Below are positions 20,406 to 58,053 of a stretch of 64,000 nucleotides of DNA, piece after piece. How positions within the stretch are numbered: the stretch's first letter is position 1; the number at the start of each line of letters is the position of its first letter. The DNA lies in NCBI GenBank assembly GCA_026195275.1, contig JAPHQU010000004.1, positions 3,119 to 67,118 on the forward strand, read 5' to 3'. The notes beneath the pieces were generated by a model that saw only the letters and a program-made list of their open reading frames with translations, made no database searches and was not told the DNA's origin. Both the position numbers and the translations under genes were made by a program. The stretch comes from Minisyncoccota bacterium. Its GTDB lineage: Bacteria; Patescibacteriota; Minisyncoccia; Phycocordibacterales; JABMNX01.

Positions 20406-23400
20406 ATGATTATGAAAAACGACCCTGGAAAGGCTCCCGAGGAGAAGAGTGGTGTTGCAAAGCGTGAGGAGGGGGTCCTCGCATTTTGGCATACAAATAA
20501 TGTCTTCAAGAAATCCGAAGAAAAACCGGCACCAAAAGGAGAATATGTCTTTTACGATGGGCCACCGTTTGCGACCGGGCTTCCGCACTACGGTCACTTG
20601 CTTGCGAGTACTATTAAAGACGCGATACCACGCTACCAGAGTATGCGTGGTCATCGGGTCGTGCGTAAGTGGGGGTGGGACTGCCACGGGCTTCCTCTTG
20701 AGAACGAGATAGAAAAGGAATTGGGTCTTACGACCAAGCGAGACATCGAGAGTCTGGGTATTGCGAAGTTCAATGAAGCGGCGCGCGATGCGGTGCTTCG
20801 CTATGCTGACGATTGGAAGAAGATCATACCGCGGATGGGGCGGTGGGTCGACATGGAGAGCGACTACAAGACCATGGATACCTCGTACACCGAATCGGTG
20901 TGGTGGGTATTCAAAACGCTCTACGACAAAAAAAGTATTTACCAAGGGTTCAAATCAATGCACCTTTGCCCACGTTGTGGCACCACACTCTCGAACTTTG
21001 AAGTGAATCAAGGATATAAAGATACAACCGACATCTCTGTATACGTCGGGCTTAAACTTAAAGATGAGCAGGATACGTCTCTTATTGTGTGGACTACAAC
21101 ACCATGGACGCTACCCGGCAACATGGCAGCGGCAGTGAACAAGGATGTCGAGTACGTCACAGTCGAGAAAAAGGATGAAGGTGGACTCACTCGCTTTATT
21201 GTCGCAAAAGATAAACTCAAAGATGTTTTCGGTGATGATGAATATACCATCGTCGATACATACAAAGGTGAGGAACTTATCGGCAAATCGTATATCCCGC
21301 CGTTTGATTACTACAAAGATAAGAACATCGAGCATAAAGAGAACGCGTGGAAGGTTTACCACGCAGACTATGTTTCAGTTGAGGATGGAACCGGTGTGGT
21401 GCACCTTGCTCCCGCTTTCGGTGAAGAGGACCTAGTGCTTGCTCAACAAGAGGACATCCCGGTCGTACACCACGTAACACCGGAGGGTGTATTTGCACAA
21501 GAAGTGTCTGACTTTGCTGGTATGTTTGCAAAGCCAAAAGATGACCCGCTTGCAACTGATATCGAGATCATTAAGGCGCTCTCCGCGCGCGGCGCGCTCT
21601 TTAAAAAACAGAAGGTAACACACAGCTATCCGTTTTGTTGGCGTTGTGATACGCCGCTTCTTAACTATGCGACATCGTCGTGGTTTGTACGCGTAACTGA
21701 TTTTAAAGACAAGCTTGTTTCAGAGAACAAAAAAGTTGGGTGGATTCCAAAAGATGTCGGCACACATCGATTCGGCAACTGGCTTGAGAATGCACGCGAT
21801 TGGGCGATCTCACGCTCGCGCTATTGGGGCGCACCACTACCGGTATGGCTAAACGAGAAAGAGGAAAAAGTGCGGGTCATGGGATCAGTCGAGGACCTGA
21901 AGAAATATATTGCATCTTCAGGTAATACCTACTTTATGATGCGTCACGGCGAGGCGGTACATAACACTAAGAACACACTGAACGCAAAGGACTCAGTGGA
22001 GAATCCGGTGACGGAAGAAGGAAGGAAACAAGTGTATGAAGCGGCCAAGCTCTTTAACGGAAAGAGCATTGACCTAATCATACACTCTCCATTACAGCGG
22101 ACGCGCGAGACAGCTGAGCTTCTTGCGTCTGAACTCAAGCTCCCTGGATCACAACTTCGCGAAGATGCCCGCCTCACGGAAGTAAATGTCGGGTTGTTTG
22201 AAGGGAAGACAATTGATGAGTACCACGCGTTCTTTGCTGACTCGCGAGAGCGTATGAGTAAGCGACCCGAAGGAGGAGAGAATTGGGGTGAGGTCAAACG
22301 ACGTGTGAGTGAGGTGCTCTACGAGCTCGAGCGAGAATATAAAGATAAAAAGATATTGATCATCTCGCACAACGGACCACTTGAGATGATTCAAGCGGGT
22401 GCGCTCGGGTATGATGTTGATCAATGCGGGGAAGCGATCAAAGATAATCGTTTTGACATGTCGGTCGGCGAGGTGCGTAAACTTCCGTTCATACCGCTTC
22501 CGCATAATACTCTGTTTGAGCTTGACCTACACCGTCCATACATTGATGAGATCACTCTTATTGATACAGACGGCAGCGAGTTGAAACGGATTCCTGATGT
22601 GTTTGACTGCTGGTTTGAATCTGGCTCCATGCCGTACGGGCAGCAGCACTATCCATTTGAGAATACTGATGTCTTCGAGCCAAAGAGCGGATGGTTCAAA
22701 CGAGCGAAAGGCTACCCGGCGGACTTTATCGCGGAAGGAATGGACCAAACGAGAGGCTGGTTCTACTCGCTCATTGTCCTTGGCGTCGGGCTCTTTGGTC
22801 ACTCCCCATACAAGAATGTGATTGTGAACGGTCTCGTGCTTGCGGAAGATGGTCGCAAGATGAGCAAGCGACTCAAGAACTATCCTGATCCGGCATATAT
22901 TTTAAACACCTATGGAGCTGATGCGCTTCGCTACTACCTTCTCTCATCACCGATTGTTCGCGGGGAAGACCTCAATTTCTCTGAAAAGGGTGTTGATGAA
23001 GTGATGAAGAAACTCTTGGTGCGTCTTGAAAACGTATATTCGTTTTATGCACTCTACGTCGAGGATGGAACAGTGCCACAAAGCGTGGCCAGCAAGAATA
23101 TTCTGGACCAGTGGATTCTCTCACGACTCAATGAACTCACTCTTGAGATAACCGGTGCGATGGAACGCTATGAGCTCGACCGCGCGACGCGTCCGATCGG
23201 ACTCTTTATTGATGATCTTTCGACGTGGTATATACGCCGCTCACGTGAGCGCTTTAAGAGCAATGATGTGGAGGATCGTGCGCATGCTCTTGAGACAACG
23301 CGCACTGTTCTCATGGGGCTCAGTAAGGTCATGGCGCCATTCATGCCATTTTATGCGGAAGCACTCTACCAGGAGCTCAAAAAAGAGGACGATCTGGAGA

Positions 23401-23930
23401 GTGTACACCTCTGCGAGTGGCCTGAGGCAGGGAAGAGTAACAAGGAGGCGCTTGAAGATATGGCAGTGGTGCGCCGGCTCGTATCGCTCGGCCTCGAAGC
23501 TCGCGCTAAAGCGGGCACGAAGGTGCGTCAGCCGCTTGCGGAGCTCAAAGTTAGAAGTGAAAAGTTAAAAGGAAAGATGAAACTTCTCGAACTAATCGAG
23601 GACGAAGTGAATGTGAAGAAGATCTCGTTTGATACCTCGCTATCAGAAGAGGTTGAGCTCGACACCGAGCTCACCGATGAGTTGAGACAAGAAGGACTCG
23701 TACGCGATCTTATCAGGCGTATCCAGCAGTTTAGAAAAGAGAACGACCTTACACCGCAAGAGAAGGTGGCAATTATCATCGATACTGATGAGCACCTTAA
23801 GGAAGCGTTTGTGGGCGCGAAGACTGAGATTATGAATGCGACGCTTCTCTCAGACCTCACTTTTGGTTTTGTAGAAGGAGAGAAGGAGACCGTTGACGGG
23901 CATCCGTTTGCGTTCTCACTTAGTAAGTAG
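20406..23930 (+). CDS. ileS: Isoleucyl-tRNA synthetase with an in-frame inserted histidine-phosphatase (PGM-like) domain
   Basis: PPFATGLPHYGHLL (HIGH), TTPWTLPGN (CP1 editing) and KMSKRLKN (KMSKS) are present. An extra ~170 aa lies between the CP region and DLHRPYIDEITL; it contains RHGEAVHN, SPLQRTRETAE and ISHNG motifs. Confidence 0.9.
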   Translation: MIMKNDPGKAPEEKSGVAKREEGVLAFWHTNNVFKKSEEKPAPKGEYVFYDGPPFATGLPHYGHLLASTIKDAIPRYQSMRGHRVVRKWGWDCHGLPLENEIEKELGLTTKRDIESLGIAKFNEAARDAVLRYADDWKKIIPRMGRWVDMESDYKTMDTSYTESVWWVFKTLYDKKSIYQGFKSMHLCPRCGTTLSNFEVNQGYKDTTDISVYVGLKLKDEQDTSLIVWTTTPWTLPGNMAAAVNKDVEYVTVEKKDEGGLTRFIVAKDKLKDVFGDDEYTIVDTYKGEELIGKSYIPPFDYYKDKNIEHKENAWKVYHADYVSVEDGTGVVHLAPAFGEEDLVLAQQEDIPVVHHVTPEGVFAQEVSDFAGMFAKPKDDPLATDIEIIKALSARGALFKKQKVTHSYPFCWRCDTPLLNYATSSWFVRVTDFKDKLVSENKKVGWIPKDVGTHRFGNWLENARDWAISRSRYWGAPLPVWLNEKEEKVRVMGSVEDLKKYIASSGNTYFMMRHGEAVHNTKNTLNAKDSVENPVTEEGRKQVYEAAKLFNGKSIDLIIHSPLQRTRETAELLASELKLPGSQLREDARLTEVNVGLFEGKTIDEYHAFFADSRERMSKRPEGGENWGEVKRRVSEVLYELEREYKDKKILIISHNGPLEMIQAGALGYDVDQCGEAIKDNRFDMSVGEVRKLPFIPLPHNTLFELDLHRPYIDEITLIDTDGSELKRIPDVFDCWFESGSMPYGQQHYPFENTDVFEPKSGWFKRAKGYPADFIAEGMDQTRGWFYSLIVLGVGLFGHSPYKNVIVNGLVLAEDGRKMSKRLKNYPDPAYILNTYGADALRYYLLSSPIVRGEDLNFSEKGVDEVMKKLLVRLENVYSFYALYVEDGTVPQSVASKNILDQWILSRLNELTLEITGAMERYELDRATRPIGLFIDDLSTWYIRRSRERFKSNDVEDRAHALETTRTVLMGLSKVMAPFMPFYAEALYQELKKEDDLESVHLCEWPEAGKSNKEALEDMAVVRRLVSLGLEARAKAGTKVRQPLAELKVRSEKLKGKMKLLELIEDEVNVKKISFDTSLSEEVELDTELTDELRQEGLVRDLIRRIQQFRKENDLTPQEKVAIIIDTDEHLKEAFVGAKTEIMNATLLSDLTFGFVEGEKETVDGHPFAFSLSK
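21920..22480 (+). other. Inserted histidine phosphatase superfamily domain (branch 1, phosphoglycerate-mutase-like) within ileS
   Basis: Catalytic RHG(E) ... SPLxRTxETA ... (I)SHNG motifs in the right order and spacing for a complete PGM-like fold. Confidence 0.75.
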
Positions 23931-38844: not shown

Positions 38845-38880
38845 CTCTTAGATTTTATTATGAGTGAAGCGAATTAAAAA

Positions 38881-38951
38881 ATCTTAGACCCCGTGAAATG
38901 CGCCGGCTCGCCGGCGCACCTCCGCCCAAAGGCGGAGGATTTCACTGGGGG
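38881..38951 (-). ncRNA. Conserved structured leader module in the ftsK 5' UTR (three-way-junction-like; paralog of the rplJ leader module at 50916..50975)
   Basis: On the ftsK sense strand: CCCCAGUGAAAUCC-[hairpin]-[hairpin]-GCAUUUCACGGGGUCUAAGAU. The outer 11-bp stem and flanks are identical to the rplJ copy; inner hairpins differ but still pair (covariation). Confidence 0.55.
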
Positions 38952-38978
38952 TTGGTTCATGTTTTATACAGATTTTCA

Positions 38979-38990
38979 TCGATTATACCA
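38979..38990 (-). promoter_or_regulatory. Extended -10 promoter (TGGTATAAT) for ftsK, ~28 nt upstream of the leader module
   Basis: Minus-strand sequence ...TCGTGGTATAATCGATG... No good -35. Confidence 0.4.
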
Positions 38991-39256
38991 CGATGTACAC
39001 GCAGTTTTCAGGTGTACAACGGTGGAATGAATAAAGAGTAAGAAGTTGAGGGGTGTGTAAGGAAAGGGCGACGAGCCGCATGCCCAATGCTCTCTATTTT
39101 TTGGGTGCATCTTCCTAACTCTTCATTCGTATTTCGTAATGTCTCAGAGGGGTTGTGTTCAAGCTTGTCCTATATATAATGGACATATGTAGATGTCTTT
39201 ATATAAAGGACATATAAAAGACAGTATAAAGGACACAATAAAGGTCAAAAGAGTCT

Positions 39257-40027
39257 ATGAGCCCACAAAAGAAAAACCAAGCACTCTTGCAGAACACGCA
39301 CGGCATTGATATTGAAGCCGTAGGACCTTTTGGAAACAACACCGCTGGTGTCCATGTGTACAAAAGGACAGAAAAGATTGTCGCCGCTCTATATCTCGTG
39401 ACAAATTTTGTCCCTGAGAGCGAGCCGGCACGACGTGTGATAAGAGACAAGTCAATCCACATTCTCTCTGATGTCCTTGAGCTTCGCTCAGGTTTTGGCT
39501 CTGCCGGGTCAGAAGGGGTTGAGCGGATCGTCGCATCGATTTGCGAGATAGTCTCTCTTCTTGATGTGGTACGCATTGCGGGGTTCGTTTCAGAGATGAA
39601 CGCAGAGATCCTCAAGCGTGAGCTCAACAACCTTGTAATCTTTTTGCGCGGCGTGAGTAAGAGCGGCGATGCTGAAAAGGTCACTTTCGATGCGGGTGAT
39701 TTTGACACTGATTATAAAGGACATAAAAAGGACACCGTTATGTCCTTTTATTCTACAAAGGACAAACATATTTCTTCAGGATCAAAAAAACGTACAGTGC
39801 GGCAGACGCAGGGGGGAGCAAAAAAAGCACAGGAGCGTAGCGATAGGCGGGATCAGATACTTGGTGTCGTAAAGGACAAAAAACAGGTGACGATAAAGGA
39901 CATAATTGAAACCATTACCGACTGTAGCAGCAAGACGATTCAACGTGAACTCATTGCACTTGTTGAGAGTGGTGTCCTTAAGAAAGAAGGAGAGCGGAGG
40001 TGGAGCACATATTCGCTTAAGAGTTAA
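39257..40027 (+). CDS. Putative transcriptional regulator with a C-terminal winged-helix DNA-binding domain (N-terminal all-alpha domain, possibly HEPN-like)
   Basis: C-terminus QVTIKDIIETITDCSSKTIQRELIALVESGVLKKEGERRWSTYSL is a typical wHTH. The N-terminal domain has an R-x4-H motif (RDKSIH). Confidence 0.5.
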   Translation: MSPQKKNQALLQNTHGIDIEAVGPFGNNTAGVHVYKRTEKIVAALYLVTNFVPESEPARRVIRDKSIHILSDVLELRSGFGSAGSEGVERIVASICEIVSLLDVVRIAGFVSEMNAEILKRELNNLVIFLRGVSKSGDAEKVTFDAGDFDTDYKGHKKDTVMSFYSTKDKHISSGSKKRTVRQTQGGAKKAQERSDRRDQILGVVKDKKQVTIKDIIETITDCSSKTIQRELIALVESGVLKKEGERRWSTYSLKS

Positions 40028-40048
40028 GAATAATGAGGAATTAAGGTG

Positions 40049-40078
40049 AAAACCGCCGCAGGGTTTGCGGCGGTTTTG
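40049..40078 (+). terminator. Rho-independent terminator
   Basis: AAAACCGCCGCAGGGTTTGCGGCGGTTTT. Confidence 0.7.
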
Positions 40079-40829
40079 TTGTTGTTAAAATCCGATAAGC
40101 GTGCTGTAGGCGTGTTGTATGAAATATCTTTGTTTCTAGCCGTATATACCCAATACCCAATACATGACCTCTAATCCCTCACGACGCGTTGACTTTTTGA
40201 GTGAAAAGCGTAGTATGTACAGCAATGGATGTTAGCGAACACCCAACCCTGAAATAGGGGATAAGCGGGCCGAATACGGTCCTCTTTGTTGTTGTGTTTG
40301 TTTCCGTGGAGTGGATCTCCACAAAAGGACGTTGTCCTTTTATCCACACATACTGTTTTGTGAGTACATTCAAGACGGATATAATTTGCTTAAGCAGTCT
40401 CGCAGGTGCGAGATGTGAATTGGGCGAACCATCAGTTACGAATTGCACGCAACAGTATCGGGCAGATCGTTGACAATTTCATACAGTTCAGAAGCAGCAT
40501 GCTCTCGCCGAGCGACTTTGTCGTTTTGTGGGTGCATACGTTACAGATACACCAGTACCACCACGGAAGCTTTGAAGTCCGCATGACAGACTAAACACTC
40601 TTGCCTGCTAAACTCGTCCCTTGTCGATATTCAGAGGCGAGATTAGTGAAGGAAAAATATCGCATGTGAACAGCTTCACTGCTCGGTCGCAAAACAGAGC
40701 ACGGAGTTGAACACAGAAAAGGACGGACATATTTTTGGTCGAAAGAAAATAGGTCCGTACCTAAATGACGTTTGTGTGTCTGTCGACACACAGGCACACA
40801 AAGGCATTTATAGGAAATTAAAGGTCACT

Positions 40830-43800
40830 ATGATTAACACATTAGAAACACGAAAAGTTGTAACAGCGCTTATCGTTGTTGCAATGATCTTCGGTGCACT
40901 CTTCGCATTCACTACCGTGAAGGCGCAGGCGCTCACCGAGGCTCAGATTCAGTCGATCCTCTCGCTCCTCTCATCATTTGGAGCTGAGCAGGCAACTATC
41001 GACAATGTTGACGCTTCCCTCCGTGGACAGCCAACATCAGGAACCGGATCAACAGGAGGAACGACAGCATGTTCGTTCACACGATCACTTACGATCGGTG
41101 CAACAGGTGCTGACGTGACATGTCTTCAGACATACCTTGAAGGTACTGGACACTTCACGTGGACAGGTGCCAAGGGTTACTTCGGTACTATTACCCAGTC
41201 AGCTGTAGCCGCATGGCAGGCAGCAAACGGAGTCTCACCAGCAGTTGGATACTTCGGCCCAATTTCACAGGCGAAGTACACAGCAGTAGCAGGAACAACT
41301 GGTGGCACCACAGGTGGCACCACTACTCCCGCACCAACAGGAACAGGACTCTCAGTTGCAGCAGCAGCACAGCCAGCAGCATCACTCGCGCCAAATAGCG
41401 CGGCACGCGTACCATTCACAAAGTTCACGGTTACCGCCGGAACTGACGGAGCGGTTACGATGAACAGCGTTACTGTTGAGCGAACAGGTCTCGGAGCAGA
41501 CGCATCATTCTCAGGAGTAGTTCTTCTTGATCAGGATGGTACACAGCTCGGAACCGCGAAGACATTCAACTCAAACCACCAGGCAACAATTGGTGAGGAT
41601 GTAGTAGTCCCAGCAGGGTCAACCCGCACCTTCACCGTTGCAGGTAACATGGCTTCAGACAACTCTACCCGAGCGGGACAGGTTGTTGGAATCAATGTAG
41701 TTGCGGTTAACACCTCAGCTGCGGTTTCAGGTTCACTTCCAATCACTGGAGCAATGCACACCATCAACGCAACCCTTTCACTTGGGTCAGTAACGATGGC
41801 AGTGTCTTCATTCGACCCGAACTCAGCACAGACCAAGGAGATCGGATCAACCGGCGTACGATTCGCTGGAATCCAGATCACTGCAGGTTCAGCAGAGGAC
41901 GTTCGAATCAAGAACATCCGATGGAACCAGTCAGGTTCAGCAGGAAAGGATGATATCGCAAACGTAGTTACTGTTGCAAACGGAGTAGCGTACCCAACCA
42001 CAGTTTCATCTGATGGTAAGTACTACACAACTTCATTTGGAAACGGTATTGTTATCGGAAAGGGTAACAACATCGATATCTACGTAAAGGGTGACATCAT
42101 CGGTGGTTCAAACCGAACAGTCATCTTCGACATCTACAAGACGACTGATCTCTACATCACCGGAGAAACCTACGGATACGGAATCACACCTCCAGCAGGA
42201 AGTGGTACTGCAGCAACGACTTCATCAGTCTTCACTGCAGGGACTCCGTTCTTCGACAACGCAACAATGACGATCTCAGCTGGATCAGCTTCAACGATCC
42301 AGAAAGCGATCTCAGTTGCGTCACAGAACATTGCTGTCAACGTTCCAAATCAGCCACTTGGCGGATTTGAGACCGACATCAAGGGTGAAGCGATCAACAT
42401 TGCAGGTTTGACCGTTACGGTTGCAACCTCATCAGGATCAGGAACAGGAGTCTTGACCAACGTATCAATCGTTGATCAGAACGGCTCAGTTGTTGCAGGT
42501 CCAGTTGACGCGGACACCGCAGGAACTTCATTAGTCTTCACCGACTCAATGACCCTTCCAACAGGAAAGATGGTCTACACCATCAAGGGTAAGGTAGCTT
42601 CAGCTATCGGAAACGGTACTGTCTACACCCTTTCTGTTACCCCTTCTGGCTGGACAACTCCAGTTGGAAACGTAACGGGAGACTCAATCACGATTTCACA
42701 GGGAGTATTCACGCTTAACCCAATGACGGTTAAGGCGGCTGACCTCAACGTGAGCGTGGCACCAAACCCAGTTGCACAGAACATTGTGGCAGGAGCGCAG
42801 GGTTACACCTTCGCGAACTACCAGTTCGACGCAACGCAGTCAGGTGAGGATGTACGATTCTCATCAATGGTTGGATTGCTTAACGGCAGCACAAACGCTA
42901 CCGCAGGTGCGTACAGCAACTTGACGTCATGTCAGTTGTGGGATGGTTCAACTGCGTTGAACGGCGGTTCAAACGTAGTTAATCCGACAGCAGCTGCAAC
43001 ATCATCTGCAAGCACCAACACCTTTACCTTCGACAACACTCTTACTGTTGCAAAGGGAACGGTTAAAACATTGGCACTCAAGTGTAACCTCTCAAGCTCA
43101 GCTGATACGGCTTCGACCTATCAGTGGGGTATTGCAGCAGTTGACGCTAACATCTCAGTTACCGGTGTAACCTCATCGGTTGCAGTTACAGAGGACGTTA
43201 CCGCATCTAACGGTCAGCTTATGACCGCAGCAGCAGGAACCCTCGTAGCTTCAGAAGACGCATCAAGTCCTTCATACGCAATTGTGAAGGCAGGATCAAC
43301 TGGAGTAACAAATGGAATCATCAACTTCCACGCTGCAAACGAATCAGTAACGATCCAGCGCATTGGTCTTACCCTTACGAATGCAACCGCATCATCAACC
43401 TCAAGCGACCTCGTACGAGCAACCTTGTGGGATGGTTCAACCATGATTGGTGACGCATACTTCGTAGGTGCAAACACCAACGCAACGTCAACTCTTTCAA
43501 CACCGGTAACGGTCGCGAAGGACTCTGACAAGGACATTACCGTTAAGCTTGACCTTGCATCAGTTGGCGCAAGCCAGTCTGGTAACCAGGGAGCGCTTAT
43601 CGCAGTCGATGTTGACACCAACGGAACCAACACCCAAGGTGTTGGAACCTCAGGAACCACCATCAACGCATCAGGTTCAACTTCGTTCTCAGGAGTACGT
43701 ATGTTCTCATCGTACCCAACGATTACCAAGCAGGCTGTTCCATCAACCGCCTTGGTTAACGGAGTCATGGATCTTTACCGATTCAGCGTAACGGCGAGCG

Positions 43801-45635: not shown

Positions 45636-46328
45636 TTATTCCAGAGTAATTCCTTCCAACTCGCTCATTATGGACCTGGACTTGAGCAATGCGCGCATTT
45701 GTTTTTCATAGCCCTCCTCGCCCCCGAGGAGATCAAGAAAGAACTTTCGATCTGTGATAGAGGGAAAATTCTTTTTTCCTAAGTAGTCGGAATGACTCGA
45801 CCAACGATATGATTGTAGATACTCCTCTGCTTCTCTACAGTTTGAAAGACTTCCTTTACGCCACTTTGGCATATTTAGATCAAGTGGGTTGAAGTGTATG
45901 TAAAAAGGAAGATAGAGAAAGTGTGCATCAGTGGCAATTTCGACCTTTTTATATTTTCCTTGCCACAGTGCGCCGTTACGTTCGTATTTTTCATTAAATG
46001 CTTTGGTGTATCCGCCACCGAGTTTTTTCATGAATAGCGACAAATTTTCCATATCATCATCAATAGGGGAGACAAGAAGATGGTAGTGATTCGGCATTAA
46101 ACAGAAACAATGAATCTGCACCACTGGCTCGCGTCTTTTTTTCCAAGAATCTTGACGTCGGACGTCAAGATTCTCTGATGATGCAAGGTGGTGTTTGGTC
46201 AGTCCGTTCGAACTTTGCTTATTGTTGAATTCATATAAATCGTGCAAGAACCGCACGCGATCCTTGTCGTTAAGGAAAACCTTTCGTTTATCAACGCCGC
46301 GGTTATATACATGAAAGAAACGCGTCAT
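45636..46328 (-). CDS. REP-associated tyrosine transposase (RAYT; IS200/IS605 TnpA-like Y1 HuH)
   Basis: Motif I FHVYNRG, HuH motif MPNHYHLLV, and catalytic region GALWQGKYKKV...YIHFNP...SYRWSS. Confidence 0.8.
   Translation of the reverse strand: MTRFFHVYNRGVDKRKVFLNDKDRVRFLHDLYEFNNKQSSNGLTKHHLASSENLDVRRQDSWKKRREPVVQIHCFCLMPNHYHLLVSPIDDDMENLSLFMKKLGGGYTKAFNEKYERNGALWQGKYKKVEIATDAHFLYLPFYIHFNPLDLNMPKWRKGSLSNCREAEEYLQSYRWSSHSDYLGKKNFPSITDRKFFLDLLGGEEGYEKQMRALLKSRSIMSELEGITLE
46147..46173. repeat. REP-like palindrome copy 3, located in frame inside the RAYT coding sequence
   Basis: GAATCTTGACGTCGGACGTCAAGATTC, translated in the RAYT frame as ENLDVRRQDSW between motif I and the HuH motif. Confidence 0.75.
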
Positions 46329-53818: not shown

Positions 53819-54955
53819 GCATAGGGTCCATAAAGAGGGAACCGCACCCTGTTTGTAGGACGCGGCACCAGTTTGCTTCGCTTCAGGTGGCTTCTTGTGA
53901 TTCTCTAAGAATTTCTTTCGCTTGCTTTAGTGTTGTGAGTCCTCCTGAAAGAACCCCACCATCTCACAAGACGGAAGTGTCTTTCTTTAGAGAGTGTTAT
54001 GTAGACTGCGCCTCCCTTGAATGCCATGAAGCTGGTGCACGGTATATTCTAAGGGTCCGAATACTCAGGAATAGCACGGTGTCAGCTGGGTTGTTGACTC
54101 AAAAACCCGCCTCGTGTATACTGCTGTCTACGTGATTATGAGTATTGATTTGAAGAACACCAACAAGCGGGGGCGCTAGCCGGGGCATCGACTCATGACT
54201 AACGCAGCCGCGATCTCGCGGTTTTTTTCTTGCCTTCACTCATAACTGACATCACGAGAACTTTGACAACGTCATAGGATCCATCTGGTCGGAGAGACTA
54301 GGCGGATCCGCAGGTAAAAACAAACCAAGACTAAAACTAAATGTTTACGTGCCGCTGTAAGCAAGCGGCACACACGAGTGTGGCTATGGTTATACTCGTG
54401 TAGCGGTTTTTAGATTTCCTGATAGGAGATCTAAGAGCGTGTGGTGGATACCTAGACTGAAAAAGGCGATGAAGGACGTGGCATGTCTGCGATAAGCTTC
54501 GGTAAGGTGACTAGCAACCTTTGACCCGGAGATTTCCGAATGGGGGAACCCGGCCGACTCTGTCGGTCACCTTTCTACTTGATAGAAGGGAGCGCACCCG
54601 GGGAAGTGAAACATCTCAGTACCCGGAGGAGAAGAAACCAATAGGAATTCCCGTAGTAGCGGCGAGCGAACTGGGACGAGCCCAAACTCGATTTCACCTC
54701 TACCATCTGTGTTTACACAGGTGCTAGAGGTGGTATCGGGGGTTGTAAGGCAACAATGTCATTTTTTCGAAAATGAGAAAAGTTACAAATTGTAATGTTA
54801 ATGGAAGCTTCTGGGAAGAAGCACCCAAGAGGGTAACAGTCCCGTACATGAAAACATATACAACTTTTTTGTTGTTGTCCTTGAGTAGCTCAAGACACGA
54901 ATAGCTTGAGTGAATCTGCCAGAACTAACTGGTAAGGCTAAATACTTTTTCAGAT

Positions 54956-54994
<39 letters not shown>

Positions 54995-56235
54995 GTCCGG
55001 TGAGGACAGTGAAATAGACTTGAAACCACATGCTTACAAGGAGTCAGAGCGGTCGCAAGACCGTCATGGCGTGCCTATTGAAGAATGAGCCAACGAGTTC
55101 ATATATGTTGCAGGCTAAGCCCTTATCGGGTGGAGTCACAGGGAAACCGAGTGTGAATAGCGCGAACCATTATGTAGCATGTATGAGACCCGAAGCTCGG
55201 TGAGCTTGCCATGGGCAGGGTGAAGTTTGTGGAAACACAGATGGAGGCCCGAACCGGGAGGTCGTTCAACGCCTTCGGATGACCTGTGGTAAGAAGTGAA
55301 AAGCTAATCGAACCGAGTAATAGCTGGTTCTCTCCGAAATAGCTTTAGGGTTAGCGTCGTGTGTTCCTGTTGGGGGTAGAGCACTGGCAGGTGTGAATAG
55401 GGGGAAACCTCGTCATTCCTATCAAACTCCGAATACCAACAGTTAATAGCGCGGCAGTTAGAGTCAGGGGGCTAAGCTCCTGTGCTCAAAAGGGAAACAG
55501 CCCAGATCCCAAGTTAAGGTCCCAAAATTCACGTTAAGTGCACTTAAGGAGGTGAGATTTCTCAGACAATGAGGAGGTTGGCTTAGAGGCAGCCATCCTT
55601 TAAAGATAGCGTAACAGCTCACTCATTCAGAGATTTCGCGCCGCAAATGATCGGGGCTAAACGTGATACCGAAACTGGGGGCTTTCCATTCATTCGTGAA
55701 TGGGGAGCGGTAGGAGAGCGTTCTGTTCTGCGATGAAGCCGAAGGGATAACCCACGGTGGAGCGTTCAGAAGTGAGAATGTTGGCACGAGTAACCGCATG
55801 GCATGTGAGAATCATGCCCGCCGAAAGATCAAGGTTTCCTTCGCGATGTAGATCAGCGAAGGGTTAGTCGGGCCTAAGCCGATCCCGAAGGGGGGAGGCG
55901 ATGGACACATGGTTAATATTCCATGACTTTACGAATATGCGATGGGATGACGGAGGGTTGTACTCTGAGCGCATTATTGGATTTGCGTTGGTGCTGTGAG
56001 GGGGTCTCTTAGGGAAATCCGGGAGACACCACCCCAAGCAGAGCGAAAATGGTGCGGTTTCGGCCAATCCAAATTCAGAGGAGCACGCTTCCAAGAAAAG
56101 TCTCTAAGCTTCAGTATTCGTAAAACCGTACCCCAAACCAACACAGGTGATCAGGTCGAGAAGACCAAGGCGAACAAGTGAGTCTTCCTCAAGGAACTCG
56201 GCAAAACAGCGACCGTAACTTCGGAATAAGGTCTG

Positions 56236-56335
56236 CCTGTGCAGCCAATAGAGGAGTTCATGAAGAAAACAAAAGATGAGACATGTCATATATGTATGCA
56301 TATACATGACAACGGGTGCAAGTGTTCGATCGAGA
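56236..56335 (+). other. Expansion segment in a 23S variable helix, closed by a perfect 14-bp helix (CAGCCAATAGAGGA/TCCTCTATTGGCTG)
   Basis: About 85 extra nt relative to E. coli between ...CUUCGG.AGAAGG... and ...ACUGUUUA.CAAAAACACAG. Contains internal palindromes. Confidence 0.5.
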
Positions 56336-56517
56336 GATCGAATCCTCTATTGGCTGCGTAGGCCGCAGCTAAAGAGCCCTGGCGACTGTTTACCAAAAAC
56401 ACAGCTCCCTGCGAACTCGTAAGAGGATGTATAGGGGGTGACGCCTGACCAATGCCAGAAGGTTAAGCACGGATGGTGTGATGAGTTTACTTGTCATGCT
56501 GGGCTGTGTAAGCCCTG

Positions 56518-56564
<47 letters not shown>

Positions 56565-57215
56565 AGTCCAGTAATTTTGGACGTGCACGAATGGTGTAAC
56601 GACTGGGGCACTGTCTCGAGGAAGAGCTTGGTGAAAATGCAATGGCGGTGAAGATGCCGCCTACCTGCAGCTAGACGAAAAGACCCCAGGAGCTTTACTA
56701 CAGCTTGATATTGGGGGTGTGAGTTGACTGCGTAGCATAGATGGGAGACTTTGAAGCGGACCTTTCGGGGATCGTGGAGTCGCCAGTGAAATACCATCCT
56801 TTCAATTTGCATTCTCTAACCTGAACGGAAAAAACGTGTAGGGACAGTATCTGGTGGGTAGTTTGAGTGGGGCGCTCTCCTCCTAAAAAGTAACGGAGGA
56901 GTCTATTAAGGTCCTCTAGGCGCGAATGGAAACCGTGCCGATAGTGTAAAGGCAAAAGAGGGCTTGACTGCAAGGGGTACATCCCGAGCAGGCGCGAAAG
57001 CGGAGCTTAGTGAACCGAGAGTTTCCTTTAGACGGAGCTCGAGATTAACGGATAAAAGTTACCCTGGGGATAACAGGCTGGTATTGCCCAAGAGTCCATA
57101 TCGACGGCAATGTTCGGCACCTCGATGTCGGCTCACCTTATCCTGGGGCTGGAGAAGGTCCCAAGGGTTTGACTGTTCGTCAATTAAAAAGGTACGCGAG
57201 CTGGGTTCAGACCGT

Positions 57216-57526
57216 TGAGAAGTTGAATTTATTTGACTTCTCAACAGTCTGAGTCCACTCTAACGACACAAAATCGAAGTCTTTTCGTTTATTCAATGAG
57301 AATTAATCAATCTAATCACGGCGGCTGGGTGTTTTCGTAACACCTAGTAAAGCTGACTTATATCGGTAAAACCCGAACCCATTCAGGGAGGGCAATACCG
57401 AGGAAACCCCGCACTTGCATGCAAGTGAAGGGGGTCCGTAGAGACTGAACGTCAGTTATCTGCACACTGTAATGGTGTGTCAGTTAAAGCTACAGTCCAA
57501 TGCACGAAGTAATTCGTGAGAACATG
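57216..57526 (+). other. Probable ORF-less group I intron in 23S rRNA domain V (near E. coli positions ~2593-2597)
   Basis: Conserved 23S sequence GGGUUCAGACCGU | ... | CGUGAGACAGGUUGGUC is interrupted by ~311 nt. The insert follows a U, ends in G, starts with a 10-bp P1-like hairpin (GTTGAGAAGT/ACTTCTCAAC), has AGACUG...CAGUCC (P7-like) and a terminal hairpin CACGAAgtaaTTCGTG (P9-like). Confidence 0.55.
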
Positions 57527-57667
57527 CGTGAGACAGGTTGGTCTTAATCTGCTGTGGGCGTCGATCTTTGAGAGGAGTTGTTCCTAGTACGAGAGGACCG
57601 GAATGAACTGACCTCTGGTGTATCGGCTGTCGCGCCAGCGGCACTGCCGAGTAGCTATGTCGGGAAT

Positions 57668-57700
<33 letters not shown>

Positions 57701-57882
57701 AACCTCAAGATAAGAGATCATAGACCCCTAGGAGATGACTAGGTGATAGGCTCTCGGTGTACGCACAGTAATGTGTTTAGCCAAGGAGTACTAATTCGTC
57801 GTACTCCTGTTAGGAAATCTGAAAATCGCTGTAAACAAAAAGTTTGTTTTTACCAACTCAAGTATTCAATGATGGGTGTTTG

Positions 57883-58053
57883 GGGCCGTAGCTCAGAAAG
57901 GTCACACGCTGTTTCTCAGTTCTTTTGGATTGATTTACTCCATGAGCTGCCAACTTAAGGGGTGGGTCAGGAACACGCGTGTGTCGCGAGAGAGCATCTC
58001 GTCTTGGGAAGGTCGCAGGTTCAAATCCTGCCGGCTCCACCAACTTTCTATCA
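57883..58053 (+). tRNA. Disrupted or intron-containing tRNA-like gene: canonical 5' end and 3' T-arm/acceptor end separated by ~100 nt
   Basis: 5' end GGGGCCGUAGCUCAG. 3' end GCAGG-UUCAAAU-CCUGC-CGGCUCC-A-CCA, complementary to the 5' acceptor. No contiguous D/anticodon arms could be folded. Confidence 0.4.

Follow-up and report, generated by a model that had tools for sequence, protein, structure and literature searches.

Several bacterial repressors are known to act from operators that lie both at a promoter and inside a gene. In the LacI (O1-O2), GalR (OE-OI), GlpR (at glpD) and Escherichia coli DeoR systems, promoter operators are combined with intragenic ones, the repressor is oligomeric and the DNA is looped. 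A different arrangement is found in CtsR, the class III stress repressor of Firmicutes, which consists of a winged helix and a four-helix bundle, binds tandem direct heptad repeats overlapping promoters and autoregulates its own operon. In the ParR-parC system of plasmid R1, direct repeats of 11 bp, in two groups of about five each, surround the promoter of the system's own operon, and cooperative binding to them leads to autorepression.

We analysed a locus that has features of all three, located in a stretch of 64,000 nt (the window) from a Minisyncoccota bacterium (GCA_026195275.1, contig JAPHQU010000004.1, positions 3,119 to 67,118, forward strand). It resembles the LacI, GalR, GlpR and DeoR systems in having candidate operators at the promoter and a few hundred bp inside the coding region, which is the mechanism that we propose for its regulator. 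It differs from them in that the inner array lies in the disordered-linker DNA of the regulator's own gene, comprises about five asymmetric copies instead of one palindrome and is conserved across a class-level clade, and in that the regulator is unrelated to these repressors save for its HTH type. Like CtsR, it is predicted to join a winged helix to a four-helix bundle, but in reversed order, the winged helix of CtsR being N-terminal; no sequence similarity was detected, the motif differs, and CtsR has no known intragenic array. With ParR-parC it shares repeat arrays around the putative binder's own promoter and a proposed autorepression, whereas ParR is a ribbon-helix-helix protein and parC a partition centromere; the regulator has no partner ATPase, sits in a chromosomal housekeeping context and has one of its arrays in a coding region. 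We consider it probable that the regulator is a lineage-specific DNA-binding protein that acts as a multivalent autorepressor through promoter and intragenic operators, possibly with looping, and that it has a small regulon.

The regulator gene (39257..40027, + strand) is a single ORF encoding 256 amino acids. In the AlphaFold2 model, a four-helix bundle (residues ~29-136) is followed by a disordered linker (~140-185), a helix (187-207) and a winged helix (213-254), the latter built from helices 213-219 and 225-237 and a β wing at 241-254. The Pfam profile HTH_DeoR (PF08220) matches residues 197-243 with E = 2.8e-4 and a score of 21.0 bits, which just equals the cut-off of 21. These residues are C-terminal, not N-terminal, and in 72 of 74 relatives the profile matches weakly. 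Model and profile thus agree with the C-terminal winged helix proposed in the first-pass annotation. Neither the recognition helix (SEKTIQREL) nor the wing (GERRWSxYS) varies within the family, as would fit a motif that is itself conserved throughout it. The NCBI name for the protein is 'DeoR family transcriptional regulator'. Members of the DeoR family, however, carry an N-terminal HTH together with a DeoRC sugar-phosphate sensor, whereas the HTH of the regulator is C-terminal, DeoRC (PF00455) has no match in the window protein or its 74 relatives, and the other domain is a four-helix bundle.

This N-terminal domain is predicted to form an up-down four-helix bundle of ~110 residues that can be superposed on Avd, BT_0352 and XCC0516, and its closest structural matches are Avd and the 23S-IVS four-helix bundles. 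At the sequence level, PF05635 has no match in the window protein and matches only 5 of 74 relatives (best E = 0.0066), while a profile search of PDB sequences returned no bundle relative and only a marginal BlaI-type winged-helix match. An R-x4-H motif had earlier been read as reminiscent of HEPN. The motif exists (R63-x4-H68) and R63 is invariant, but position 68 varies between H, Q, R, C, M, D, S and E, and the top 60 structural matches contain no HEPN entry, so that reading is not supported. Avd and the 23S-IVS proteins (PF05635) are stand-alone bundles of ~110-120 amino acids without a DNA-binding domain, to which the regulator adds a winged helix; such a fusion was not found described in the literature searched, which likewise yielded nothing relevant on the regulator family or its motif.

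The regulator is a Paceibacteria-wide family, from ultra-small bacteria of the CPR, with a predicted architecture of Avd-like bundle, linker and C-terminal DeoR-type winged helix. Over 1800 of its homologues have the full length of 250-280 amino acids, and the protein is kept in at least 569 species-level genomes. A frameshift, or a division of the ORF into two genes as the first-pass annotation had suggested, was rejected on account of these full-length homologues, and the internal sites fall in the disordered linker. The genes recA, a small membrane protein and ftsK are divergent from the regulator, and a cell-surface protein gene follows it; synteny with recA and ftsK is held in 67-75 of 75 loci. 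This conserved setting speaks against the suggested phage or defence-island origin, as does the result of a search of 2.9 million viral contigs in IMG/VR, which contained no relative of the regulator. Searches with PADLOC and PHROGs gave weak winged-helix-level matches only.

The clustering of a recurrent octamer, from which the first-pass annotation started, was borne out by counting. The octamer AAAGGACA has 12 exact copies on the two strands of the window, where dinucleotide shuffles contain 2.5 on average and never more than 7, and 10 of the 12 are packed into 1.14 kb (39205-40340), at 39205, 39228, 39363, 39716, 39727, 39757, 39871 and 39895 on the + strand and at 39741 and 40333 on the - strand. 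With the heptamer AAAGGAC a further site appears at 40324, the left arm of the palindrome AAAGGACgttGTCCTTT (40324-40340). A PWM scan of the whole window located no second motif cluster, and beyond the regulator's own gene no target is visible within these 64 kb.

To define the motif family-wide, we used 75 orthologous loci (30-60% protein identity), with ~700 kb of their flanking DNA as the "elsewhere" background for motif density. De novo 7-mer enrichment across the loci yielded variants of the regulator motif only. The motif, TAT-AAA-(A/G)-GACA, is asymmetric and about 10 bp long, and both the 7-mer enrichment and the PWM have GACA as its invariant core. It is enriched 75-200-fold 5' of and within the regulator gene and is at chance level elsewhere. 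The density of AAAGGAC is 3.6/kb upstream and 3.3/kb in the gene versus 0.11/kb elsewhere; PWM sites reach 9.6/kb upstream and 3.8/kb in the gene (+ strand in both cases) versus 0.05/kb. At least four sites are present in 72 of the 75 loci (median 8), and in 72 of 75 the same array occurs both at the promoter and within the gene, in keeping with the earlier impression that the regulator is autoregulated through operators of its own. Arrays most often have five sites, a number that varies with the score threshold. Flanking preferences are common to upstream and in-gene copies and are absent from chance copies elsewhere. The commonest spacing is 11 nt; a helical period of 9.5-10 nt is only weakly expressed (vector strength R = 0.24). 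A generic promoter element is not supported, as the motif is at chance level in the ~700 kb of flanks, and an element of the Shine-Dalgarno or CsrA type was rejected as well, the invariant core being GACA and not GGA. Rfam searches of 38845-40900 in gathering and E-value modes returned noise only and no known RNA family.

The probable regulator promoter (39153..39180, + strand) consists of a weak -35 box, TTGTGT (39153-39158), a 16-nt spacer and the -10 box TATAAT (39175-39180). It was located by its position, following the architecture cTTGCA-17-TATAAT-GGACA seen throughout the family; because its -35 box agrees at just 3 of 6 positions, it was absent from the output of the consensus promoter scan. 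A motif copy, AATGGACA (39178..39185, + strand; PWM score 16.4), is fused to the -10 box (TATAATGGACA), and the promoter spacer holds an inverted copy, TGTCCTA (39166..39172, - strand; PWM score 13.4), so that the two form TGTCC-N9-GGACA surrounding the -10 box. Across the family, AATGGAC and TAATGGA are among the top enriched upstream 7-mers; in 45 of 75 loci GACA is joined directly to the -10 box, and 16 of these 45 have an inverted copy 10-20 nt 5' of it. The 5' UTR array (39194..39247, + strand) has direct copies 11-12 nt apart. Its members are an inverted TGTCTTT (39194-39200), AAAGGACA on the + strand at 39205-39212 and 39228-39235, and the degenerate copies AAAAGACA (39216-39223) and AAAGGTCA (39240-39247). 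Three upstream octamers had been reported at first; two are exact, the third is the inexact AATGGACA, and the degenerate and inverted copies come in addition. In the family loci, direct repeats likewise occupy the stretch from the -10 box to the ATG. As would be expected of an autoregulated repressor, the putative binding motif overlaps the core promoter of the regulator's own gene, and this overlap is conserved in orthologues.

Inside the gene, a copy at 39363..39370 (+ strand; PWM score 12.2), overlooked in the first-pass annotation, lies in the N-domain coding region in codons for YKRTEK. It overlaps the near-invariant K36, T38 and E39 and may therefore be driven in part by the protein sequence. 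The linker-DNA array (39716..39764, + strand) holds AAAGGACA at 39716, 39727 and 39757 (+) and at 39741 (-); sites had been noticed here before, but they number four, not two. The array contains the palindrome AAAGGACAccgttaTGTCCTTT, encodes YKGHKKDTVMSFYSTKD and falls in residues 154-170, with a pLDDT of about 50 in the AlphaFold2 model. Two further copies, 24 nt apart at 39871 and 39895 (39871..39902, + strand), lie where the DNA that encodes the winged helix begins (VKDKK ... IKD). Family-wide, the linker DNA carries ~5 copies, which make use of every reading frame and of either strand, and in-gene copies encode KGQ/KGH, xKD, KRT, SSF/MSF and VLS. At the invariant K214-D215, the preceding Ile is ATA in 41 of 56 cases and Asp is GAC in 45 of 69, a codon choice that builds ATAAARGAC. 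In total, 198 in-gene copies were observed compared with 43 ± 6 in synonymous-codon shuffles (4.6-fold). The same DNA of the regulator gene thus appears to serve as protein code and as putative binding site, and the linker amino acids KGH, KGQ, IKD and MSF are, judging from these sequence comparisons, evidently dictated by the putative DNA-binding sites.

The linker array could also be an internal expression signal, giving rise to a short isoform with only the C-terminal winged helix that starts, in this genome, at M162 and modulates the full-length protein. The in-frame Met is where the first-pass annotation had put it (ATG 39740), a Shine-Dalgarno-like AAAGGA lies 7 nt upstream, close relatives retain (K-G/D)-x(1-2)-M-S-F, and the motif includes a -10-like TATAAA. 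We nevertheless regard such an isoform as unlikely. The Met is confined to close relatives and missing from most of the family while the array is universal; the ATG arises incidentally from the inverted motif ATGTCCTTT, which prefers a T at its flank; the window has no -35 box at a proper distance; and an array is found inside cca as well, where the logic of an isoform fails.

The region 3' of the regulator gene begins with a hairpin resembling an intrinsic terminator (40049..40077, + strand; 13-bp stem, then a T-rich tail). The palindrome AAAGGACgttGTCCTTT (40324..40340, no strand assigned) is probably an extra operator particular to the lineage. It is not a family feature, because across the family the downstream gap shows no more than a 3-5-fold enrichment of the motif, with most copies no further than 70 nt from the stop codon, and on the same grounds control of the downstream surface-protein gene was rejected as a family feature. 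The palindrome abuts a conserved DnaA-box-like TTATCCACA (40340-40348), also given as GTTATCCACA, which together with a promoter forms a neighbouring element (40340..40385, + strand; -35 TTGTGA at 40358, -10 TATAAT at 40380-40385). This promoter (40358-40385) scores 10/12 in the promoter scan and is located ~400 nt upstream of the PG_binding_1 surface-protein gene. We place box and promoter as a neighbour, outside the regulator system so far.

The perfect TTATCCACA 300 nt downstream, in an arrangement of box and promoter kept in 54 of 63 loci, the direct-repeat arrays with an inverted repeat over the promoter and the winged helix of the protein might call to mind a replication origin, with the repeats as iterons and the protein as a Rep-like initiator. 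This is extremely unlikely. GC skew is positive on both sides of the locus with no switch, the genes and rRNA operon on both sides run in the same direction, and the context is one of chromosomal housekeeping. Moreover, TTATCCACA is the only box with at most one mismatch in the gap, and its fixed distance of 7-9 nt from the -35 box resembles that of a promoter element; an origin was rejected for the missing strand switch and the single DnaA-like box.

The motif also marks yraN-cca-xth in related genomes, so that the putative regulator probably has a small regulon under its control. Metagenomes scanned for two motif copies within 25 nt gave a stored set of 120 loci, among them 15 at regulator homologues and 22 at yraN-cca-xth. 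Many of its other matches were set aside as coincidence (collagen-like phage proteins encoding GDKGQKG, tandem repeats and integrase-linked elements). Sites within cca (46 sense, 3 antisense) are found at +403 to +565, and some arrays sit between the convergent cca and xth, where the copies point along with each incoming transcript. Promoter occlusion makes no sense for arrays in that position. One cca gene (L117) has an enlarged insert full of motif copies.

That copies are translated in two unrelated genes, and fill the L117 insert, would suit selfish short elements that insert in frame without a regulatory role, like the Rickettsia palindromic elements. Such an origin is highly unlikely, as even deeply diverged orthologues have their copies at matching positions, the ~700 kb of flanking DNA contains no more copies than chance would give, and the copies are single short sites, not a defined element. 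The second locus, which does not encode the regulator, also raises the question of whether the motif belongs to another DNA-binding protein, for which the regulator gene would be one target beside yraN-cca-xth. The tie between putative winged helix and motif is indirect, and we infer it from the co-location of the motif with the regulator's own gene. Against another binder, which we regard as improbable, stand the array at the regulator gene in 72 of 75 deeply divergent loci, the densest cluster seen being that of the regulator gene, and a recognition helix that is as invariant as the motif. Self-targeting, in addition, is the commonest pattern among bacterial repressors.

Sites are strongly biased to the sense strand, by 6:1 upstream, 5:1 in the regulator gene and 46:3 in cca. 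This bias runs against a palindrome-binding dimer, and fits an RNA-level element too. It is one reason to consider that the repeats act in RNA, with sense UAAA(A/G)GACA in the 5' UTR and coding region bound by the regulator, by another RNA-binding factor or by an RNase, and translation or mRNA stability controlled in this way. The orientation of the copies in the convergent cca/xth gap, the likeness of the N-domain to Avd, which works in an RNA-protein complex, and the Shine-Dalgarno-like AAAGGA would fit as well. We judge action in RNA unlikely, however. Fusion to the -10 box puts the best-conserved copy at or before the transcription start, and inverted copies flank that box; antisense copies account for ~15-20% of the total and form palindromes; the spacing peak of 11 nt is about one turn of DNA; the invariant core reads GACA, where a Shine-Dalgarno or CsrA-type site would have GGA; and the predicted domain is a DNA-binding winged helix of the DeoR type. 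At the promoter the bias might stem from the half of the motif that resembles a -10 box and would fix its orientation, and the sense bias might also reflect the residues encoded, which are hydrophilic in sense (K, G, H, Q, D) and hydrophobic in antisense.

For the DNA-binding autorepressor that we favour, the conserved winged helix most likely recognises the asymmetric ~10-bp TAT-AAA-(A/G)-GACA. One copy is fused to the regulator's -10 box, often with an inverted partner just upstream, and 3-5 head-to-tail copies cover the 5' UTR up to the start codon, so that bound protein would block RNA polymerase, giving negative autoregulation. A second array of ~5 copies is offered 450-650 bp downstream by the DNA of the linker and the first winged-helix helix. 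By analogy, the Avd-like four-helix bundle may make the protein oligomeric; Avd itself is a pentamer (PMC6182149). Flexibly tethered winged helices could then occupy several irregularly spaced copies at once, and looping may bridge the promoter and intragenic arrays in the manner of lac O1-O2, gal OE-OI and the internal operators of glpD. The comparisons show the enrichment, placement and conservation of the motif, selection on codons, the protein's architecture and fold, and synteny; repression by the regulator, oligomerisation and looping are what we infer from this arrangement.

A bolder version, which we put forward as a tentative and rather doubtful possibility, would have a pentameric Avd-like hub with five tethered winged helices organise kilobase-scale nucleoprotein domains on arrays written into coding DNA (its own linker, and cca at ~+400-560), or would have the sense-biased copies act on transcripts as well. 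If true, the hub would make the protein a multivalent chromosomal regulator of a new type among CPR bacteria, with disordered-linker DNA doubling as operator, and on both views the mechanism would extend beyond classical promoter occlusion.

The linker of the regulator would also be a clean natural example of dual-use coding. It bears on how linker 'motifs' and codon bias are read, and on gene callers and motif finders that ignore coding DNA. With few CPR/Patescibacteria in culture, how they regulate their genes has hardly been explored. The locus provides a ready-made, testable regulator-motif pair, with a candidate site of ~10 bp and a candidate small regulon made up of the regulator's own gene and yraN-cca-xth.

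The 64-kb window contains 12 copies of the octamer AAAGGACA, compared with an average of 2.5 and at most 7 in dinucleotide-preserving shuffles, and ten of the 12 copies are confined to 39205–40340, confirming the dense array that the first-pass annotation had described around the regulator gene. The palindrome AAAGGACgttGTCCTTT is located at 40324–40340, and its left arm was recovered by a search with the heptamer AAAGGAC. Upstream of the regulator ORF, the exact copies are flanked by degenerate ones, namely AATGGACA (39178–39185), AAAAGACA (39216–39223), AAAGGTCA (39240–39247) and the inverted copies TGTCCTA (39166–39172) and TGTCTTT (39194–39200). The annotation had correctly placed copies inside the ORF at 39711–39770, but its number was too low, as this block holds four, and an additional copy at 39363 had been overlooked. 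A scan of the whole window with a position weight matrix (PWM) trained on orthologous loci returned no motif cluster besides the regulator locus.

The same motif recurs across the family. In a comparison set of 75 loci, comprising the window and 74 loci of species-representative genomes, AAAGGAC is found on both strands at 3.6 per kb in the 250 nt upstream of the gene and 3.3 per kb within it, with 0.11 per kb, the chance level, in the rest of the loci. The corresponding values for plus-strand sites with a PWM score of at least 12 are 9.6, 3.8 and 0.05 per kb. All 7-mers recovered by de novo enrichment are versions of a single motif (TAGGACA, AAGGACA, AAAGGAC, AATGGAC, AAGACAT), and the PWM consensus is TAT-AAA-(A/G)-GACA. 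About 70% of the upstream and in-gene copies alike are flanked by T at −1 and A at +8, a preference not found in chance copies elsewhere in the loci. At least four sites lie between −300 and the stop codon in 72 of the 75 loci (median 8).

The upstream regions can be aligned by eye as cTTGCA, 17 nt, TATAAT-GGACA. In 45 of 75 loci a motif copy is fused to the −10 box; 16 of these also carry an inverted copy 10–20 nt 5′ of the −10, and direct copies occupy the stretch from there to the ATG (median distance 88 nt). Neighbouring direct copies are most commonly spaced by 11 nt, with lesser peaks near 19–20 and 30–32 nt, and show weak ~10-nt periodicity (vector-strength test, R = 0.24, R being the mean resultant length computed from the distances between pairs of sites for a chosen period). 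The window keeps this plan, with TGTCCTA, TATAAT-GGACA and four more copies preceding the ATG at 39257. A conserved asymmetric motif thus overlaps the core promoter of the regulator and fills its 5′ UTR. Repressors typically use a site covering the −10 and the start point, and we infer that the regulator, by binding the motif copies, acts as a repressor of its own promoter.

The regulator ORF (39257–40027, plus strand) encodes 256 amino acids and is identical to a GenBank protein named by NCBI ‘DeoR family transcriptional regulator [Candidatus Pacebacteria bacterium]’. Over 1800 homologues, 250–280 residues long, align with it end to end, and the ORF is therefore one gene and not two, as had been considered possible. 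In alignments of 25 and 74 members, the N-terminal domain is conserved (Glu56, Arg63, Ser112 and Asn115 are invariant), the linker differs in length and sequence, and the C-terminus, CSEKTIQRELxxLVxxGVLKKEGERRWSxYS, is almost invariant, with an invariant recognition helix. An AlphaFold2 model based on the 74-sequence alignment (mean pLDDT 81.5) comprises a four-helix bundle (helices 29–49, 57–74, 84–107 and 113–136), a disordered stretch (residues ~140–185), a single helix (187–207) and a winged helix (helices 213–219 and 225–237, strands 241–244 and 251–254). The C-terminal winged helix proposed initially is thus present in the model, and HTH_DeoR is the sole Pfam match, right at cut-off. A profile search of PDB sequences returned only a marginal BlaI-type winged-helix match. 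The highest structural scores were obtained for Avd, the accessory protein of diversity-generating retroelements (8ub7_B, 14.2; 4dwl_A, 13.7), XCC0516 (2gsc_A, 14.1) and BT_0352 of the ‘S23 ribosomal’/23S-IVS family (2rld_A, 14.0), with r.m.s.d. values of 1.9–2.4 Å across 104–113 residues; PF05635 (23S_rRNA_IVP) matches weakly in five of 74 family members. The N-terminal domain is accordingly modelled as an Avd-like bundle, tethered to the winged helix by about 45 disordered residues. It is not a HEPN domain, which its R-x4-H motif had brought to mind: the His is not conserved in either alignment, and no HEPN protein appears among the 60 structural matches listed.

The in-gene copies cluster at +400 to +700, a region encoding the linker and the first helix of the winged helix. 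They occur on both strands and in all three frames: 48 in plus frame 0 (KGQ/KGH), 88 in plus frame 2 (xKD), 8 in plus frame 1 (KRT), 32 in minus frame 2 (SSF/MSF) and 15 in minus frame 0 (VLS/VLY). AAAGGAC was observed 198 times in the genes, compared with 43 ± 6 after within-gene synonymous-codon shuffling. For the invariant I-K-D in the winged helix, ATA is the Ile codon in 41 of 56 cases and GAC the Asp codon in 45 of 69, the preferred codons combining to ATAAARGAC. This excess and codon choice indicate that the nucleotide motif itself is under selection, so that a second array lies inside the linker-coding DNA, where it shapes the amino-acid sequence of the linker. In the window, the array at 39716–39764 encodes YKGHKKDTVMSFYSTKD, and the copies at 39871–39902 encode VKDKK...IKD. 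The Met of MSF is an ATG within the inverted copy ATGTCCTTT; as AAAGGA sits 7 nt upstream of this codon, Met162 may be an internal translation start, but its confinement to close relatives counts against this. The intragenic palindrome AAAAGGACAccgttaTGTCCTTTT (39726–39749) can form a 9–10-bp hairpin and was flagged on the minus strand by a terminator scan.

The neighbourhood is conserved across the 75 loci, in the order recA (−), a membrane protein of ~120 residues (−), ftsK (−), the divergent regulator (+), a gap of ~600 nt and a large PG_binding_1 surface-protein gene (+). The remaining window genes are housekeeping ones (aminoacyl-tRNA synthetases, FtsW/RodA, glycosyltransferases, an rRNA operon). 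Relatives of the regulator are absent from 2.9 million viral contigs, and defence and phage libraries gave only weak matches at the winged-helix level; the suggested phage or defence-island origin is therefore not supported. Other features of the window include a long GC-rich hairpin (gaccccgtgaaatgcgccggctcgccggcgcacctccgcccaaaggcggaggatttcactggggg, 38889–38950) on the ftsK side of the 412-nt ftsK–regulator gap, and, a few kb further downstream than the regulator locus, an ORF (45636–46328, minus strand) that weakly matches an IS200-like Y1 transposase. The 23S rRNA match (54421–57813) measures 3393 nt against a 2925-position model and so contains insertions. A 158-nt ‘tRNA’ identified by Rfam but not called by ARAGORN (57882–58039) may be a tRNA that is split or contains an intron, and a 1174-residue class I aminoacyl-tRNA synthetase (20406–23930) carries a His_Phos_1 (histidine-phosphatase) domain at residues 510–674.

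Downstream of the regulator, 54 of 63 loci (window 40340–40385; gaps of L002–L080) contain a perfect DnaA-box-like 9-mer, (A/G)GTTATCCACA, 7–9 nt upstream of a strong promoter (TTTGCA/TTTGAA, 17 nt, TATAAT), which precedes the surface-protein gene by 300–600 nt. Each gap holds a single box and GC skew does not switch; the arrangement therefore resembles a promoter element, perhaps under DnaA control, and an oriC was rejected. Between this promoter and the surface-protein gene lies a leader of ~400 nt or an unannotated RNA (40386–40830), for which Rfam returned nothing. Relatives have a stem-loop at the 5′ side in which the changes look compensatory (GCAACGAG...CTCGTCCCA), and the words CTTTGACAAT and TTGTGTCGATA are shared; the L002 gap is 70–76% identical to that of the window over parts.

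Scanning metagenome contigs for TAAAGGACA-N(1–25)-TAAAGGACA returned at least 120 loci, at least 15 of them regulator homologues and at least 22 a conserved CPR locus, yraN/cca/xth (UPF0102 nuclease, CCA-adding enzyme and exonuclease III), none of whose genes is present in the window. The others were dismissed as heterogeneous coincidences (collagen-like phage proteins, tandem repeats, integrase-linked elements). Among the matches listed, at least 46 sense and at least three antisense sites lie within cca, all but one at +403 to +565, and are often translated as KGQ or KGH. Further copies are found upstream of yraN and, in the order + + − −, in the convergent cca–xth gap. Array-bearing loci include L091, L102, L106, L114, L117, L136, L140, L143, L145, L146, L150, L159, L167, L169 and L199, among others. 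In L117, cca has an enlarged in-frame insert packed with copies (SKGHSNNSKGHFNSENVLYKILKDKNFYKGH). The same contig (3790–4170, minus strand) carries a reversed GTTATCCACA box and a TATAAT joined to an inverted copy, facing a noncoding stretch of ~300 nt between cca and rpsO that ends in the terminator-like GGCGGTTTTTTT and may be a small RNA gene.

By analogy with Avd, which is a pentamer (PMC6182149), the four-helix bundle would oligomerise. The commonest array size is five sites, a count that varies with the score threshold. Tethered winged helices of such an oligomer could occupy irregularly spaced copies, and the oligomer may link the promoter array to the intragenic one, in the manner of the known operator looping at lac, gal or glpD. 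This model accounts neither for the strong sense-strand bias of the copies nor for the arrays that lie between convergent genes. The bias would also suit a motif acting at the RNA level, a reading we regard as improbable. It may stem in part from the −10-like half of the motif, which would set its orientation at the promoter, and in coding regions from the hydrophilic residues encoded by sense copies, compared with hydrophobic ones by antisense copies.

Binding of DNA by the regulator would resemble that of known autorepressors with multiple, including intragenic, operators. It would also be similar to that of CtsR, a direct-repeat binder in which a winged helix is likewise paired with a four-helix bundle. 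The regulator is not a canonical DeoR member, because its domain order is wrong and the DeoRC domain is missing, and it is related to Avd and 23S-IVS proteins by fold alone. The literature searched yielded no account of the family, its domain fusion or the motif. The principle, autoregulation, is ordinary; its form is unusual, with predicted operator arrays conserved within the coding sequence of the regulator's own disordered linker and within cca.
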